A DNA stretch of 23,520 nt, from contig PRDI01000090.1 of assembly GCA_003345595.1 (NCBI GenBank), positions 1 through 23,520 on the forward strand, in the 5' to 3' direction. Position numbers and translations under genes: made by a program. The notes under the pieces were generated by a model, which worked only from the letters and a program-made list of their open reading frames with translations, had not been told where the DNA came from and made no database searches. Below, in pieces: positions 3,144 to 14,786 of the stretch; the first letter of the stretch is position 1, and each line of letters begins with the position of its first letter. The DNA is from Candidatus Thorarchaeota archaeon. GTDB taxonomy: Archaea > Asgardarchaeota > Thorarchaeia > Thorarchaeales > Thorarchaeaceae.

Positions 3144-3231
3144 TTGGTTATATTGGAATGCTGTCACTTCGTAATTGACTTATACCTCCACAGTCTGTCC
3201 AACAACAAGCACAGTAGCTGGAGGAGCAGAC

Positions 3232-4431
3232 ATGATAGACTTCACGCTCACCAATGAACAGATCACGCTGCAGAAGAAGGCGAGAGAATTCGCTCAGAAG
3301 TATATGATTCCCTATGCCCATTACTACGACAAGACTGGCGAGTTTCCACTGCCAATAATCAAGAAGTGCTGGCAAGAAGGTCTCATGAACTTGAGCATAC
3401 CTAAGGAGTATGGGGGTCCTGCTCTAGGAGTCGTTGACATGTGTCTAGTTGTCGAGGAGATGGCTGCTGGGTGCGCAGGCATGACTACGAGCATCTATGC
3501 GAATTCGTTGGGTGCAGAACCGATACTCGTGGCAGGTACCAATGAACAGAAAGAGAAGTATCTCAGGCCGCTCACGAAAGACCTGAAGTTCATTGCCTTT
3601 GCATGTTCAGAACCTGGAATGGGGAGTGATGTAGCCGGTATCCAGACCAAGGTCAGAAAGGATGGTGATAACTACGTCCTGAACGGCGCCAAGTTCTGGA
3701 TAACAAATGCACCATATGCTGACACCTTTACCGTCATTGCCAGCCTTGACCCGAGCCAGCGACACAAGGCCCTGTGTGCATTCATTGTTGATGCCGACAC
3801 ACCAGGAGTGAAGACGGGTAAACCCGTTGAGAAAATGGGCCATCGCGCTTCTGTGACCTCATCTGTCATGTTCAAGGAAGCGAAAGTTCCTGCAGAGAAT
3901 CTACTGGGGTCTGAGGGAACGGGGTTTCTAACTGCAATGGCCACATTCGCTATGACGCGGCCTGCAATTGCAGCGTTTTCGACAGGTCTCGCGAGAGCAG
4001 CTATGGAGTATGCGCGCGAATACGTCAACAAGAGAGAGGCATTCGGGGAGAAGCTGCGCAAGTTTGAGGTTATCCAGTTCAAGCTAGCTGAGATGTACAT
4101 GAAGATTGAGGCATCAAGGCTGCTTTATCTCAAAGCTGCGTGGGAGGCGGACACAAGCGGCGATTCCACTGTTCCTGCAAGTGTGGCCAAGGCCTATGCC
4201 ACAGATGCAGCAATGTGGGTTGCCAGTGAGGCAGTACAGGTCCATGGAGGATATGGTTACATCGACCAGTATCCGCTGGAGAAGCTCTTTCGCGATGCCA
4301 AGCTCTACCAGATATACGAGGGCACCAGCGAGATACAGCGGCTCATACTTGGTCGCCACGTCCTAGATGGCTACGACCCAGCCATGGAGAAGGTTCCCGG
4401 GTGGGGATCCATGACCCCGCCGGACTTCTAG
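3232..4431 (+). CDS. Acyl-CoA dehydrogenase
   Basis: GGAGGAG RBS before ATG 3232. Motifs: MIDFTLTNEQ, FACSEPGMGSD, LNGAKFWITNA, KMGHRAS, REAFG, VQVHGGYGY, FRDAKLYQIYEGTSEIQR. Confidence 0.95.
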   Translation: MIDFTLTNEQITLQKKAREFAQKYMIPYAHYYDKTGEFPLPIIKKCWQEGLMNLSIPKEYGGPALGVVDMCLVVEEMAAGCAGMTTSIYANSLGAEPILVAGTNEQKEKYLRPLTKDLKFIAFACSEPGMGSDVAGIQTKVRKDGDNYVLNGAKFWITNAPYADTFTVIASLDPSQRHKALCAFIVDADTPGVKTGKPVEKMGHRASVTSSVMFKEAKVPAENLLGSEGTGFLTAMATFAMTRPAIAAFSTGLARAAMEYAREYVNKREAFGEKLRKFEVIQFKLAEMYMKIEASRLLYLKAAWEADTSGDSTVPASVAKAYATDAAMWVASEAVQVHGGYGYIDQYPLEKLFRDAKLYQIYEGTSEIQRLILGRHVLDGYDPAMEKVPGWGSMTPPDF

Positions 4432-6486: not shown

Positions 6487-7677
6487 TCACTTCACTTTCT
6501 GGGCGAACTCCTTGCCCCACTCGTAAGCCTTGTCCAGTTCCTCTTTCGTAGGCACCCACTTGACCGTAAACGGCTCCATGATCACTTGCATCTTGCCCCG
6601 TTCCATGGCCTCTTGGATCTTCTTGACGGCACCGCCGCTCCAGCCATAGGAGCCGAATGCCGCACATTTCTTGCCTTCGGGTTTTAGGACTTCGAGATCG
6701 GACAGTATAGGGGCAACAGTGGGCAGAATCTCGTTATGGAGAGTGGAGCTACCCACCAGGATACCCTTTGCCTCAAGCAACTCAGCCATTGTGTCACTAC
6801 GATCACTGTGCGGGATTAGCCGAAGCAGAGGTGTCAGGCCCTCATCCCTGATTCCTTCAGCTATGGCTCTGGCAAGCTTTGTCGTGCTCTGCCACATGGT
6901 GTCCCATGTGATCACTACCTTGTCTGTGGTCCGTTCACCCTTTGCCCACTGGAGGTACCTAGTCACGATCTGAAGCGGGTCCTTTCGCCAGATGAGACCA
7001 TGTGACGGTGCTATGATCTTGATTGGAAGCTTGAGCTCGAGCACTTCCTCAATCTTCCTCTGGACCTGTCTGCTCAGAGGCCACAGGATATTCGCATAGT
7101 ACTTCTCAGCCTCCCTCCAGAGCACGTACTGGTCCACCTCGTCCGCGTACCGCTCCTCTGAGGCATAGTGCTGGCCAAACGCATCATTAGGCATCAGCAG
7201 CTGCTCTTCAACATAGTAAGTGAACATGCTCTCTGGCCAGTGAAGCATCGGGGCCTCATAGAACCGCAGAGTCTTTCCTCCAAGGTTGATCTCATCCCCT
7301 GTCTTCACAGTCTGAATCTTCCACCCGTCCCGGTAGTGCTTCTTCAGCGCATCAATCGCCCTTGCAGTACACACGAGGGTGGCGTTTGGCACTCTCCTCA
7401 GCACTTCTGGAACTGCGCCCGAGTGGTCTGTCTCCGTATGGTTCGAAATCATGTAGTCAATCTTCTGAAGGTCAACTATCCTTGATATCCTGTCAAACAT
7501 CTCCTCGGCAAATGGTCCGTAGACAGCATCTACAAGTGCAATCTTCTTGCCGACCACCAAGTATGCGTTGTACGTGGTACCATGGTGCACTGTGTAACTG
7601 TAACCGTGAAAGTTGCGTATATCATGGTCTATTGCTCCGACCCAATAGACTCCCTTCATTATCTCGAAAGGTTTCAT
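6487..7677 (-). CDS. fprA: FprA-type flavodiiron protein (O2/NO reductase)
   Basis: GTTYNAYLV, NHTETDHSG, PMLHWPESM, NDAFGQH, IAPSHG, and a flavodoxin domain (TMWQST, AFGSYGWSGGAV). Confidence 0.95.
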   Translation of the reverse strand: MKPFEIMKGVYWVGAIDHDIRNFHGYSYTVHHGTTYNAYLVVGKKIALVDAVYGPFAEEMFDRISRIVDLQKIDYMISNHTETDHSGAVPEVLRRVPNATLVCTARAIDALKKHYRDGWKIQTVKTGDEINLGGKTLRFYEAPMLHWPESMFTYYVEEQLLMPNDAFGQHYASEERYADEVDQYVLWREAEKYYANILWPLSRQVQRKIEEVLELKLPIKIIAPSHGLIWRKDPLQIVTRYLQWAKGERTTDKVVITWDTMWQSTTKLARAIAEGIRDEGLTPLLRLIPHSDRSDTMAELLEAKGILVGSSTLHNEILPTVAPILSDLEVLKPEGKKCAAFGSYGWSGGAVKKIQEAMERGKMQVIMEPFTVKWVPTKEELDKAYEWGKEFAQKVK

Positions 7678-8858: not shown

Positions 8859-9413
8859 ATGCCCCCACACTGTGACACTATGGACGGACCTGTGGTCAAA
8901 GCTGCGAAGATGGCCCTTGAGAAGGGCAATGCGAATCTGATTCTGCCATGGGCACCAGAGAAACATGAAACCGAGATCAAAAAAGCGTTTGAAAGAACGC
9001 TCCGGGTCAGAAAACTTGGAAAAGACGCTGCAGAACTTGCAGACTACTGGTTCTATGAAACAGTCGTTCGTTTGCACCGAGAGGGAGAAGGTGCTCCCTA
9101 TACAGGACTTAAGCCGGCAGGACTTGACTGGGGACCGGTTGTACCAAGAGCGGAGAAGGCCATTGAACAGGGCAATGCAAAGGAAGTCATAGCATTTCTG
9201 ACACACACCGTGGAAGAGGAGCTGCAGGAGCGGTTCAAGCATGCCCTAGCCAAGAAGAGCTACACTGTGGACGACGTGCGTACAGCAAGAGAGTTTGTGC
9301 ATGCATACTTGGGTTTCGTTCTCTACTCCCAGCACCTGTATACCAGCATCAAGGGTGGCGGTGAGCACGGTGAGGAAGGAGAGGAAACCGGCGGGCACGA
9401 ACACAAACACTAG
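8859..9413 (+). CDS. DUF6448-like protein with N-terminal HCD motif and His/Glu-rich tail
   Basis: GAAGGTGA RBS. Motifs HCDTMDGPVV and FYETVVRLHREGEGAPYTGLKPAG. Tail GGGEHGEEGEETGGHEHKH. Confidence 0.8.
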   Translation: MPPHCDTMDGPVVKAAKMALEKGNANLILPWAPEKHETEIKKAFERTLRVRKLGKDAAELADYWFYETVVRLHREGEGAPYTGLKPAGLDWGPVVPRAEKAIEQGNAKEVIAFLTHTVEEELQERFKHALAKKSYTVDDVRTAREFVHAYLGFVLYSQHLYTSIKGGGEHGEEGEETGGHEHKH

Positions 9414-10350: not shown

Positions 10351-10698
10351 CTAGACCGAGTGACTGGTCTTACAGTCCTCGAAGATATCTCCGAACGCAT
10401 GATAGAAGTAGCGGCGTGCCTCCACGAGACCTTGCTTGCCCGTTTCTGTCAGAGTGTAGACGACTTGTTTTCCATCCGAGGTCCCGTCAATCAACTTGCG
10501 GACGGCTAAGTCCCTGAGTGCGGGGTAGATGGTGCCCGGGGTCGGTCGGCTTCCACGGCGTTCGGCAATTCGTCTTGCGAGTTCCTGTCCGTTCATGGGC
10601 TTCTTGCTCAATTCCCATAGAATCTGAAATGAGAGCATACCACGCATGTCACAACACGATGGCGGACAGCATTCTTCCGAATCCGGGACCCGTGACAT
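10351..10698 (-). CDS. PadR-family transcriptional regulator with Cys-rich N-terminus (CCPPSCC)
   Basis: RGMLSFQILWELSKKPMNGQEL...PTPGTIYPALRDL...VVYTLTETG is the PadR wHTH signature. ATG at 10698. Confidence 0.88.
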   Translation of the reverse strand: MSRVPDSEECCPPSCCDMRGMLSFQILWELSKKPMNGQELARRIAERRGSRPTPGTIYPALRDLAVRKLIDGTSDGKQVVYTLTETGKQGLVEARRYFYHAFGDIFEDCKTSHSV

Positions 10699-10704
10699 AA
10701 GTCG

Positions 10705-10752
10705 TATTGGGTGACCAATATATTTATATCTTGTTGTATCGGGCATCCAATA
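10705..10752. promoter_or_regulatory. Divergent padR/arsM promoter with two TATTGG-N4-CCAATA operator palindromes flanking a TATA-like box
   Basis: tattgg-gtga-ccaata (10705-10720, perfect) and tatcgg-gcat-ccaata (10737-10752, one mismatch), 32 bp apart, with TATTTATAT between them. Confidence 0.7.
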
Positions 10753-10790
10753 ACGTGATATCTGGCACCCTGTAATGTGGTGGTCATTGA

Positions 10791-11537
10791 ATGAGAGCCA
10801 AAGGTGAGTCTGTTAAGAAACATGTGCAGGAGCACTACTCCGCTGTAGCGAAGAGGGCCGAAGCCCCATGTTCGTGTTCGTGCTGCGGACCAGTGTCCAA
10901 GGAGCAGTACGCTGAGATGATAGGTTACACGAAGACCCAGCTTGCCGCACTGCCTCAAGGCGCTATGGCAGCCAGTGCAGGATGTGGTAACCCAGCTGCT
11001 CTTGCTGGACTGAAACAAGGAGAGGTCGTCCTCGACCTGGGATCCGGTGGCGGCATTGATGTATTCCTGGCCGCAAGGGCGGTGGGCCCCACTGGCCGAG
11101 CAATCGGCGTGGACATGACTCAGGACATGATTGACTTGGCCAAGAAAGGCGCAGAGGAAATGGGACTTGGCAACGTCGAGTTCAGACTGGGTGACATCGA
11201 GAGCCTGCCTCTGGAAGACGATACCGTCGACGTAATCATATCTAACTGCGTCATCAATCTCGCGCCCGACAAGGACAAGGTGTTCAAGGAGGCCTACAGG
11301 GTCCTGAAGCCGGGTGGAAGGCTCATGGTTTCAGACATCGTGACAAAAGGGGAACTACCAAAGGTCGTTAGAAACGATCCGGACGCGTGGGCTGGATGTG
11401 TGGCAGGAGCTCTTGATGAGAAAGTATACCTGAGCAAGATCCGTGCCGCAGGGTTCCATGATGTCAAGGTTGTTTCCAAGAAACCGTTCGTGGAACTGGT
11501 GTACAGTGCTGAGGTAGAGGCACACAAGCCTGCCTAG
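10791..11537 (+). CDS. arsM: Arsenite S-adenosylmethionine methyltransferase
   Basis: [56 protein letters not shown]. Confidence 0.92.
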
Positions 11538-11540
11538 AGT

Positions 11541-11699
11541 ATGAGAAGGAGGAAAACCAAGGTGAGGTCAAAGCAAGATAAGTCCAATCGAGAAACTCGG
11601 CTGTACGACCAAGAGAAACTCGGACTGCAGGACAGCACTGAGAAAGGCCGTAGTCACGCATCATGCTGCACGGTACCAAGCAGTATCTGGGTCGTCTAA
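11541..11699 (+). CDS. Putative small protein (45-52 aa) with vicinal Cys-Cys, downstream of arsM
   Basis: ATG 3 nt after the arsM stop, or in-frame GTG 11562 after AAGGAGGA. Translation: MRRRKTKVRSKQDKSNRETRLYDQEKLGLQDSTEKGRSHASCCTVPSSIWVV*. Confidence 0.45.
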   Translation: MRRRKTKVRSKQDKSNRETRLYDQEKLGLQDSTEKGRSHASCCTVPSSIWVV

Positions 11700-11928: not shown

Positions 11929-12339
11929 ATGCCTCCAAAAGACATGAACCTCATTGTGCTCGGATGCATGCAATGCATGTACAACGCCGCTGACTTAGCG
12001 GGAACGATGAAGATACAATATGATGTGAGCGCCAGAATCATCCGAATGCCATGCACTGCACGTCTCGACATCAACTTCATTCTGAAAGCGTTACAGGAGG
12101 GTGCAGACGGCGTGCTGGTTGTGGGCTGTCATCCGGGCGACTGCGCCTACAAGACGGGAAACTTGGGTGCAGAGAGGAGGGTTCGTTTTGCCAGGAAACT
12201 GATCGGCCAGCTAGGCCTTAACGAGGGGCGCGTGAAGATGGTGTTCGTGAGTGCCGCGGAGGGCGACAAGTTCGCGGCCGAAATCAACCGGTTTGCAGAC
12301 GAGGTTAGGAAGATAGGACCGAACCCAGTGCGCCTGTAG
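11929..12339 (+). CDS. mvhD: Stand-alone hydrogenase iron-sulfur subunit MvhD/FlpD
   Basis: CMQCMYNAADLAG, RMPCTARL, GADGVLVVGCHPGDCAY..GN, VSAAEG.KF, GPNP. Confidence 0.92.
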   Translation: MPPKDMNLIVLGCMQCMYNAADLAGTMKIQYDVSARIIRMPCTARLDINFILKALQEGADGVLVVGCHPGDCAYKTGNLGAERRVRFARKLIGQLGLNEGRVKMVFVSAAEGDKFAAEINRFADEVRKIGPNPVRL

Positions 12340-12355
12340 GGGAAAAGGGAAGTAC

Positions 12356-13681
12356 GTGGCTGAAGAGCACGAGAAGACTGGTTGGCTTCTCAGGGAGAAT
12401 CCAGTCATAATCAACATGTTCACAGCTATCTTCACATTGGGGCTGATGAGTGGTCTTCTCCGCTTCCTGTTTCCTTTCCAAGTACTGGATCTGGGGGGTT
12501 CTGAGGCACTCATCTCTTGGGGCAGCGCCTTCTCGTCGATGGGACAGATTGTCGGCCTACTAGTTGTCAGCAGACTAGTACACGAAAGAAGGAACACCCT
12601 TCTTGTCGCTGGCGGACTACTATCATTGTTTGCCCTGATTGTTGGAGTTACTTCGGATAGTACCGTTCTGGCAGTGGCACGCATCACGGAGGGCGTGGGG
12701 TCTGGTCTTCTCATCATTCTGATCATCCGCGTATCGGCAGAGTTTGGTCCCTCCCGTGGCGAGAGTGTTGGTACTCTTCTAGCAGCGATGTTTCTCGGGT
12801 CTGCGATTGGCCAGGGGCTCGCAGGATGGGCCGTGGAATATCTTGCCCTCCTCATAGCGGCGAGCCAGACTCGGGTGATCATGTTAGTCGGGGCTGCGAT
12901 GTCCGTTCTCTCAGCCGCTGTTCTTGTCATCACGGTGGCACGGGGTGTTGGAGGAGTGGCCAAGCATACTGCGCTCTCAACACACGCGCCCGGTCACACG
13001 CATATCCGTGTTCTTGCGAAGATCGTGTCATCAAGACGAGTCTTGATCCTTGCCTGTGTCTATCTGATTTACGATTTCTCACATGGTATCTACACGCCGG
13101 GTCTCTCAATACTGTTTGAAGGAAATGGAATCCCAATGGAGCAAATCGGGCTCGGATATCTAGTCGGCGACATTGTGTGGGGCATCGTGCAGGTGTACGC
13201 AGGCCGGTATGTGGACCGTGTCGGACACCTAGGCCCTCTGCTCATGAGTCTGATTCTGAAGGGCGCTACAGTCATGCTGTATCCAGGCGCATCGTCCTTC
13301 CCGCTGCTGACGTCCCTTCTCATAGTCGCAGGTGTTTCTGAGGGCTTCCTTGAACCTTCAAGAAACGATGCCGCGATGAGCTTTGCTGGAACGACCGAGT
13401 TAGTTCACGATCACCCACATCACTACCTGGCTCGTGCACAAGGGTTGTCCATCTCTCTGGCAAGCCACAAGCACGAGCATGTCCATACTACCGGCTCCAG
13501 TGAAATCGTGTCCTTCCTACAGACAATAGGCATCGCGGGATTTGCGGTGGGCTCTACAGCAGGTGCTTGGCTACTCTCGCAGGGTTTCATCTTGGCCGAC
13601 TTGACTCTCATAGGCGGAGTACTGCTGATCTGTGCAGGACTGCTGTCAGTCGGACTGCATCAACGTAGATTTTCCTCCTAG
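12356..13681 (+). CDS. MFS transporter with His-rich loops
   Basis: About 12 hydrophobic segments, motif-A-like GRYVDRVG, ARITEGVG, and His clusters HTALSTHAPGHTH and HDHPHHY...HKHEHVH. Confidence 0.85.
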   Translation: MAEEHEKTGWLLRENPVIINMFTAIFTLGLMSGLLRFLFPFQVLDLGGSEALISWGSAFSSMGQIVGLLVVSRLVHERRNTLLVAGGLLSLFALIVGVTSDSTVLAVARITEGVGSGLLIILIIRVSAEFGPSRGESVGTLLAAMFLGSAIGQGLAGWAVEYLALLIAASQTRVIMLVGAAMSVLSAAVLVITVARGVGGVAKHTALSTHAPGHTHIRVLAKIVSSRRVLILACVYLIYDFSHGIYTPGLSILFEGNGIPMEQIGLGYLVGDIVWGIVQVYAGRYVDRVGHLGPLLMSLILKGATVMLYPGASSFPLLTSLLIVAGVSEGFLEPSRNDAAMSFAGTTELVHDHPHHYLARAQGLSISLASHKHEHVHTTGSSEIVSFLQTIGIAGFAVGSTAGAWLLSQGFILADLTLIGGVLLICAGLLSVGLHQRRFSS

Positions 13682-13787
13682 TTGCGTTTTGTCGCCTCTT
13701 GTTTCCGGCTCTTTGACCCGTCGTTGGAGGAACATACGCTATAGTTTAAATGGCGAAGCGACACTCTTCACAATAGTTAATGAGAAG

Positions 13788-14786
13788 GTGCTGAAGACGA
13801 TAGTAGCCTCCCTAGTCGTGTCACTGCGCGAGGGCATTGAAATCGCCCTGATAGTTGCCGTGATCTTGTCATACCTACGAAAGTCGGACCTCCTGAACCT
13901 GGGCAGATACGTTGCTGTGGGGGTCATCCTTGCCGCTTTGACAAGCATCGGGGTGGCGTTGGTAATGGCCGCTGTGTGGGGTACATTCGAGGGACCGGGT
14001 CTCTCAGTGTTTGAAGGCGTGGTTGTCCTTGTGGCTGCCGTTCTACTTACTTCAATGATACTCTGGATGTGGAAGTCAGGCGGAAGGATTTCGTCTGAGA
14101 TAGAAGCGTCGGCAGGGAGGCAAGCCGGCCTGCGTGGCGGTATTGGGTTGCTTCTAGTGAGCTTTGCGCTCATACTGCGTGAGGGCGTTGAGCTTGTTCT
14201 CTTCTCAATGGCACTGGCAGTGGAGGATGCGTTCCAGACCTACGTTGGGATTGGTGCAGGTCTGTTTCTGGCAACAATAGCAGGTTTCGGCATATATCGT
14301 GGGTCGTTTCACATCAGTCTTCGTTCTTTCTTCAAATGGACGTCCGCCTTCCTCATCCTCTTCGCAGCTGGAATGGTGGCATATGGGATACAAGAGCTGC
14401 AGGATGGAGGGCTACTCCTGATAGGTCCACTTCAGCTGTGGAATATCAACCCGCCCCTACTTCCCGATGGCAGTTATCCTTTGCTTCACGAAGATGGGCT
14501 AATCGGGGGTCTGGCCAAGTCTTTGTTTGGCTACGATGGAAACCCCTCAGCATTGGAGGTACTCGGATATCTGTCCTACATCCTCATAGTGTCCGCGTAC
14601 TATCTACGGAACAGACCTATCAAGGACTCGGGGAGGAAACTATCTGAGGCCCCCTCGCAGCAACCTGTCATCTCGAAGCAAATGCCGCCACAGATGAATC
14701 CATATGTGCATCGACCGAACTTCCATTCAGCCCTCTTCTCTCCATTTCAACGGAGGGGGAACCAGCGTACATCAATTCGCACATAG
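13788..14786 (+). CDS. FTR1/EfeU-family high-affinity iron permease
   Basis: Two RExxE motifs (LREGIE, LREGVE), FFKWTSAFLILFAAGM, LFGY..NPS.LE. Start at GTG 13788 or ATA 13800. Confidence 0.92.
   Translation: MLKTIVASLVVSLREGIEIALIVAVILSYLRKSDLLNLGRYVAVGVILAALTSIGVALVMAAVWGTFEGPGLSVFEGVVVLVAAVLLTSMILWMWKSGGRISSEIEASAGRQAGLRGGIGLLLVSFALILREGVELVLFSMALAVEDAFQTYVGIGAGLFLATIAGFGIYRGSFHISLRSFFKWTSAFLILFAAGMVAYGIQELQDGGLLLIGPLQLWNINPPLLPDGSYPLLHEDGLIGGLAKSLFGYDGNPSALEVLGYLSYILIVSAYYLRNRPIKDSGRKLSEAPSQQPVISKQMPPQMNPYVHRPNFHSALFSPFQRRGNQRTSIRT

Follow-up and report, generated by a model that had tools for sequence, protein, structure and literature searches.

The window analyzed here is a stretch of 23,520 nucleotides from a Candidatus Thorarchaeota genome (contig PRDI01000090.1) in which a gene for a small, cysteine-tailed PadR-type regulator stands head to head with arsM, a predicted arsenite methyltransferase gene. 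Judged from sequence comparison, the regulator, the palindromic operators between the two genes and the target form a real, conserved module, and the dedication of this Cys-tagged PadR to arsM, with regulator, operator and target gene as its parts, is well supported. As a whole, the evidence is best explained if the PadR protein is an autorepressor dedicated to arsM whose CC-x3-CC tail senses a trivalent metalloid, a reading that we consider moderately probable.

The regulator, arsM, and their probable shared promoter

The padR-type gene (P0001; positions 10351 to 10698, minus strand) encodes 115 amino acids, and its match to the Pfam PadR family PF03551 scores 44.4 bits against a cut-off of 27 (1.7e-11; residues 42 to 107 of the long open reading frame [ORF]). 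The protein begins MSRVPDSEECC (opening sequence MSRVPDSEECCPPSCCDMRGM), and translation of the minus-strand codons at 10651 to 10671 places the motif CCPPSCC, the proposed sensor site, at residues 10 to 16. The PadR-family gene with a Cys-rich N-terminal extension described in an initial annotation of this DNA is thereby borne out. We place the start at the ATG at 10698 because the starts of homologues, which begin 8 to 10 residues ahead of the first Cys, agree with it and because the longer ORF, extending to 10746, would traverse an operator; the longer version was therefore rejected. In Pfam and NCBIfam searches only PadR was matched, with no match to HTH_5 (PF01022), and the regulator is a member of the PadR family that lies outside ArsR/SmtB.

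An AlphaFold2 (AF2) model built from 96 sequences, with a mean predicted local distance difference test score (pLDDT) of 85.5, is a winged helix-turn-helix with a two-stranded wing and one long C-terminal helix, the architecture of the short PadR subtype. Helices a1, a2, and a3 span residues 18 to 30, 37 to 48, and 54 to 66, the wing spans residues 70 to 83, and the long helix a4 spans residues 85 to 112. Residues 1 to 17 are modeled with low confidence, and the tail, which lies directly ahead of helix a1, has a pLDDT of 47 to 59 in this apo model. The top Foldseek matches are all PadR proteins, each with a probability of 1.00 (TA0346 [3elk], RosR, Rv3488, and LmrR). Foldseek and profile searches give 15 to 32% identity to short PadR proteins, and no match reaches into the Cys tail.

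Divergent from padR across a 92-bp spacer, arsM (10791 to 11537, plus strand) encodes a predicted short-form As(III) S-adenosylmethionine (SAM) methyltransferase of 248 amino acids. It scores 331.5 bits on the NCBIfam arsenite methyltransferase model NF008823, whose cut-off is 263 (332.8 bits when the genome was searched), and is the single copy above that cut-off in the host genome. Aligned to the solved structures 5evj, 4kw7, and 4fr0, the protein keeps the conserved cysteines and has no counterpart of the C-terminal domain found in the solved algal enzymes. Its GCGNP, SNCVINL, and AGCVAGAL pair with the structure motifs GCG, SNCV, and GEC in 5evj and 4kw7, and its N-terminal cysteines, CSCSCC, fall in the Cys44 region of the same two alignments. 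The As(III)-binding cysteines of CmArsM are Cys44, Cys72, Cys174, and Cys224. The score and the kept cysteines both uphold the earlier identification of an arsM gene divergent from padR.

The spacer contains two TAT(T/C)GG-N4-CCAATA palindromes 32 bp apart with a TATA box between them, an arrangement that had been claimed initially and that is found intact. The predicted operators, located by pattern match and carrying no strand, are O1 (TATTGGGTGACCAATA, 10705 to 10720), which separates the TATA box from the padR start and is 7 nt from the ATG, and O2 (TATCGGGCATCCAATA, 10737 to 10752), which lies 7 nt past the TATA box on the arsM side, over the predicted arsM transcription start. The box itself (10723 to 10730; TTTATATC on the plus strand and GATATAAA on the minus strand) was read directly, as TTTATAT at 10723 to 10729, and probably serves both genes. 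The strict palindrome is expected 0.02 times by chance in the window, and a genome scan of the kind proposed at the outset returned O1 and O2 as its sole two sites in 2.73 Mb. No wider regulon emerged, the strict pattern occurring nowhere else in the host genome and no further targets being found. A looser pattern gives 9 sites in the genome, none of them near acr3, and the loose site closest to the family consensus (contig C104) falls inside a membrane-protein gene.

The center of the TATA box lies about 27 nt before the padR ATG, a spacing that in archaeal promoters corresponds to a leaderless transcript, so the padR mRNA is probably leaderless. The same spacing would place O1 just past the TATA box and ahead of the transcription start, a position from which archaeal repressors block polymerase recruitment. 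The predicted arsM leader is about 39 nt long, with GGTGG 8 nt before the arsM ATG.

Conservation of the tail, the operators, and the pairing

A search of 5.8 billion proteins returned 1081 relatives of the regulator, and the tail was read in the best 120 of them. Conservation of the Cys cluster had been set as a test of the original proposal, and CCPP[DSAEG]CC followed by DMRG is kept in about 115 of these 120 homologues, the few tail-less ones looking like N-terminally truncated gene calls. Within the 96-sequence alignment four positions (C11, P12, C15, and C16) never vary, C10 and P13 show at least 90% conservation, and the C-terminal cysteines of the protein differ among homologues. For the five other PadR paralogues of the host genome the alignment starts only at profile position 19, so they have no tail; the genome holds one Cys-tailed PadR, the one arsM above cut-off, and one acr3, the last on a different contig.

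We scanned one genome per species across 185,579 species, found 230 relatives, and kept the best 80 loci, whose record titles name Thorarchaeota, Hermodarchaeota, "Promethearchaeota," Bathyarchaeota/Bathyarchaeia, Thermoproteota, and Methanomethylicota. The pairing is near-obligate: an arsM-like match lies directly upstream on the opposite strand in 78 of the 80 loci, and clustering of all ORFs identifies padR and arsM as the sole genes common to the loci. No other neighbor is conserved across the 80, only lineage-specific ones (an aspartyl protease, a hydrolase, a TATA-binding protein [TBP], an M50 peptidase, a flavin reductase, and a nitroreductase). The expected linkage to ars genes thus holds for arsM but not beyond it, acr3 being on another contig.

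The operators are conserved along with the gene pair. The 14-mer ATYGG-N4-CCRAT recurs in two or three copies per padR-arsM spacer in nearly all 80 loci; nearly every related locus has one or two of these copies distally, toward arsM, and the geometry is fixed. In 64 of the 80 loci the padR-proximal operator ends 7 to 8 nt before the start codon with a TATA element (TTTAAAT or ATATAAA) 2 to 3 nt upstream of it, exactly the geometry of O1 in the window. A footprint alignment with the three closest loci (L003, L005, and L006) shows O1 and O2 kept and the TATA box invariant between diverging flanks. Independent evidence of operator conservation comes from over-long database gene calls, in which the operator recurs in translation as "IGHPI."

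We also surveyed 400 genomes from the host's phylum. Within the host's family each gene is present in 62 of 85 genomes, and gain and loss of the two track each other there; 60 genomes have both, 21 have neither, 2 have only padR, and 2 have only arsM, and some of these single-gene genomes are incomplete or have the gene at a contig end. A second family has both genes in 18 of 19 genomes. The PadR and ArsM partners also show correlated pairwise distances (Pearson 0.78).

One genome that is 99% complete and has no arsM (G387) holds a PadR remnant (L102, 3045 to 3848) that has lost the first Cys pair, reading NPDCCDMRG, and has no operators; its frame is open far upstream, as in a decaying gene or a fusion.

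The initial annotation had proposed a complete set of regulator, operators, and effector, with a Cys-Cys micropeptide encoded right after arsM as a further part. PadR, the operators, and arsM are all conserved, but the micropeptide drops out of the set. The 52-codon ORF with the SCCT motif (11541 to 11699, plus strand) is present in the sequence as described and is probably no gene: it has no Pfam match, and tblastn of the 52-residue peptide against the 80 related loci found a similar stretch only in the nearest relative, L003, whose PadR and ArsM are 92 to 95% identical to those of the window. There the ATG has become ACG, and a premature TGA shortens the frame by three codons. Between the window and L003 the ratio of nonsynonymous to synonymous change per site (pN/pS) is 0.60 for the small ORF, 0.07 for arsM, and 0.11 for padR. 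We rejected the peptide as part of the module on its absence from the 79 other loci, the loss of its start in L003, and its pN/pS. A GTG at 11562, preceded by AAGGAGG and kept in L003, could start a 45-codon version, from which a functional peptide is unlikely given the substitution pattern and the absence from the 79 other loci.

A proposed mechanism and its alternatives

We propose that the 115-residue PadR acts as a dimeric autorepressor dedicated to arsM, with one dimer per 14- to 16-bp palindrome. O1 would be bound in the stretch from the shared TATA box to the padR start, where a leaderless transcript probably begins, and O2 in the stretch from that box to the predicted arsM transcription start, such that occupation of both sites would block TBP, transcription factor B (TFB), and RNA polymerase in either direction. 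The flexible N-terminal CC-x3-CC tail abutting helix a1 would act as the sensor by chelating a trivalent metalloid through three or four of its thiols. As(III) is the likeliest ligand, and MAs(III) (trivalent methylarsenic) or Sb(III) is possible. Chelation would order the tail, move a1 or alter the dimer geometry, and free the DNA for transcription of arsM and padR. The evidence together points to the tail as the probable sensing element, with its CCPPxCC form apparently tied to the inducer of arsM, and it is from this context that we infer As(III) as the ligand.

Several points weigh against this proposal. The genome's only acr3 (3144 to 4280) lies on another contig (L083, contig C21), on the same strand as and about 2.7 kb upstream of an ArsR-family HTH_5 gene (6935 to 7231), with a ferredoxin-like gene and three DGC-domain genes, one of which also carries GCV_H, between them; the ArsR-family protein has a CQC motif and could be the genome's real As(III) sensor. 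The cell may also have two arsenic sensors, serving efflux and methylation respectively. To our knowledge the role of short ArsM enzymes in anaerobes is not settled, so a gene called "arsM" need not act on arsenic in vivo. The four cysteines might just as well be a site for Cu(I), Cd, Zn, or Hg, carry an Fe-S cluster, or pair up in disulfides, and the AF2 model is of a monomer and says nothing on the position of the tail in a dimer-DNA complex. Among the 78 linked loci one (L067) retains merely an 82-residue arsM remnant, and the two others of the 80 (L028 and L041) have different neighbors and no arsM match. The surveyed genomes are kin, so the counts overstate independence and reflect co-inheritance and co-loss, not independent events.

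In one alternative, the same repressor and operators respond to another thiophilic or thiol-reactive signal, such as Cu(I), Cd, Hg, Se or Te species, or an oxidant or electrophile acting through disulfides, and the ArsM-like enzyme would belong to the response to that stress, methylating, for instance, another metalloid or a thiol. Distant relatives with different tails, described below, adjoin a P1B-ATPase, a thioredoxin-like protein, or a nitroreductase, so the clade looks like a general family of soft-metal or redox sensors. RosR, which is reportedly an oxidative-stress regulator, is among the nearest structural relatives, and NCBIfam includes selenoprotein variants of the ArsM-like methyltransferase family. 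It is the exact CCPPxCC tail, however, that accompanies arsM in 78 of 80 loci, the variant tails going with other targets, and the partner enzyme scores above the arsenite methyltransferase cut-off with all conserved cysteines kept. Vicinal Cys pairs moreover mark the As(III) sites of the Acidithiobacillus (A.) ferrooxidans and Corynebacterium (C.) glutamicum ArsR proteins and the proven As(III) site of MarR_ars, a bacterial repressor compared below. We regard another signal as an unlikely alternative that still deserves some weight.

We think it improbable that the cysteines are structural or hold a cofactor, as in a Zn knuckle or an Fe-S cluster, and that the protein is a constitutive autoregulator or a sensor of the O2 or nitric oxide (NO) type which controls arsM independently of the substrate of its enzyme. 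Four invariant cysteines per monomer would fit Zn(Cys)4 or [4Fe-4S], and the hosts are anaerobes rich in Fe-S proteins (in the window an FlpD/MvhD-like protein and flavorubredoxin). A Pro-Pro-x spacer between two Cys-Cys pairs is unusual, though, for a Zn ribbon or an Fe-S site, the tail has no fixed structure in the AF2 model, and a similar double-CC tag on the unrelated AbrB scaffold beside arsM would be hard to explain structurally.

That PadR controls only itself or distant genes, with arsM a passively inherited neighbor, is very improbable: most loci come from related lineages in which synteny could be inheritance alone, and a few loci have no arsM, but the pair is kept across Asgard archaea, Bathyarchaeia, and Methanomethylicota while all other neighbors change, operators also stand on the arsM side of the TATA box, the genome has no other strict operator and its good loose match sits inside a gene, and padR and arsM are gained and lost together within the family.

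Other cysteine-tagged regulators and known systems

We expected to find ArsR beside arsM in other Asgard lineages and did not; AbrB-type and MarR-type proteins stand there instead. Where Asgard families have no Cys-tagged PadR, an AbrB/SpoVT (MazE_antitoxin) protein of 96 to 105 amino acids directly precedes arsM on the same strand and carries an N-terminal CC-x8-10-CC directly before its DNA-binding domain. Examples are the genes at 2211 to 2501 (L086), 3368 to 3667 (L090), 2185 to 2475 (L091), 3592 to 3882 (L093), 2264 to 2563 (L100), 2208 to 2471 (L097), 3428 to 3646 (L087), and 3471 to 3734 (L103). The AbrB-type profile matches in 56 of the 400 genomes of the phylum and in none of the two PadR-bearing families, and about 50 of the 56 genes adjoin arsM when their coordinates are compared with the arsM matches. 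This Cys-tagged AbrB-type protein is a second candidate non-ArsR arsenic regulator. A literature search that covered few subscription journals found no description of an AbrB protein associated with an arsenite methyltransferase. In three Asgard genomes the gene upstream of arsM encodes a MarR protein of 159 amino acids with ACCCS and NCC motifs (L088, 3449 to 3928; L094, 3541 to 4020; L095, 4352 to 4831), and this archaeal protein resembles the published MarR_ars.

More distant relatives within the PadR clade have the operator type in common and differ in tails and partners. A relative with a tail of nine cysteines (NCCSNPFCECSPGHCHCTPTSCSCDMRG; P0133, L109/L110, 3001 to 3456) has an unchanged operator type and is divergent from a gene for a small membrane protein, beyond which lies the gene for an HMA/YHS P1B-type metal ATPase; it is possibly a heavy-metal-sensing PadR. 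A CC-x5-CC variant (CCPEKPDCC; L101, 2588 to 2920) is divergent from a nitroreductase-family gene (1938 to 2516) with two operator copies between them, and in that genome arsM is paired with an AbrB-type protein instead. A relative with the tail CCRPPECC adjoins a thioredoxin-like protein, and one with a single Cys adjoins a protein that appears Rieske-like by eye (CxH...CxxH; no family search was made).

The tags take the forms CC-x3-CC-DMRG on PadR, CC-x8-10-CC-K/H-VE on AbrB/SpoVT, and ACCCS plus NCC on MarR. We put forward tentatively, at slightly less than an even chance, that sediment archaea have built non-ArsR arsenic sensors at least three times by placing vicinal-Cys tags before the unrelated PadR, AbrB/SpoVT, and MarR scaffolds, each locked to arsM, as a portable metalloid-sensing module, and that a changed PadR tail retargets the operator system to other metals, as in the nine-Cys form beside the P1B-ATPase. 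That AbrB and MarR partners of arsM carry Cys tags in parallel suggests that sensing resides in a short, transferable Cys tag, not in a feature of one fold.

Elsewhere in the window, a DUF6448 protein (8859 to 9413, 193 bits) has a His/Glu-rich tail, HGEEGEETGGHEHKH, that is possibly metal binding. Downstream of arsM, positions 11929 to 14786 encode a stand-alone FlpD/MvhD-like iron-sulfur protein, a major facilitator superfamily (MFS) transporter, and an EfeU/FTR1-type iron permease, the last from an ORF that overlaps the MFS gene at its end; these genes are not conserved beside the PadR-arsM pair in other loci.

The arsenic-responsive repressors known to us are ArsR/SmtB proteins and, recently, a MarR subfamily. 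We found no description of a PadR arsenic sensor in a literature search whose coverage of subscription journals is thin, so novelty is unproven. If the proposal is right, PadR would be the third arsenic-sensor scaffold and the first specific to archaea, and the module would explain the control of arsM in the Asgard and Bathyarchaeia archaea of anoxic sediments. The small set of parts (a protein of 115 amino acids, a 14-bp operator, and a single target gene) is suited to electrophoretic mobility shift assays, structural work, and biosensor design.

The regulator shares its fold and size, a winged helix-turn-helix with one long C-terminal helix, with the short PadR proteins TA0346, LmrR, Rv3488, and RosR. 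It differs from characterized PadRs in its predicted operator, ATYGG-N4-CCRAT, its N-terminal Cys tail, and its target gene; the classical PadR operator is ATGT-N8-ACAT, and the known ligands are drugs or phenolics that occupy the dimer interface. With ArsR/SmtB proteins (R773, A. ferrooxidans ArsR, and C. glutamicum ArsR1) it would share a small dimeric winged-helix build, repression of itself and of an arsenic gene, and clustered or vicinal cysteines as the proposed metalloid site; CgArsR1 likewise uses an N-terminal Cys-Cys pair. Unlike them it belongs to the PadR family and has another operator, a four-Cys tail, and arsM alone, instead of an efflux operon, as its target.

A published parallel is MarR_ars from Achromobacter (AdMarR_ars), a repressor shown experimentally to be released by As(III) and Sb(III) through Cys36, Cys37, and Cys157 (bioRxiv 10.1101/2021.08.12.456183). 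It binds its own promoter and that of its target, and it controls arsV (bioRxiv 10.1101/2021.08.12.456183). MarR_ars has a MarR fold, is bacterial, carries its cysteines inside the fold, and has been tested by experiment, whereas the proposed sensor cysteines of the PadR described here lie in an N-terminal tail. MarR_ars nonetheless provides the precedent for a winged-helix protein outside ArsR that has been turned into an As(III)/Sb(III)-released repressor by a vicinal Cys pair plus a third Cys.

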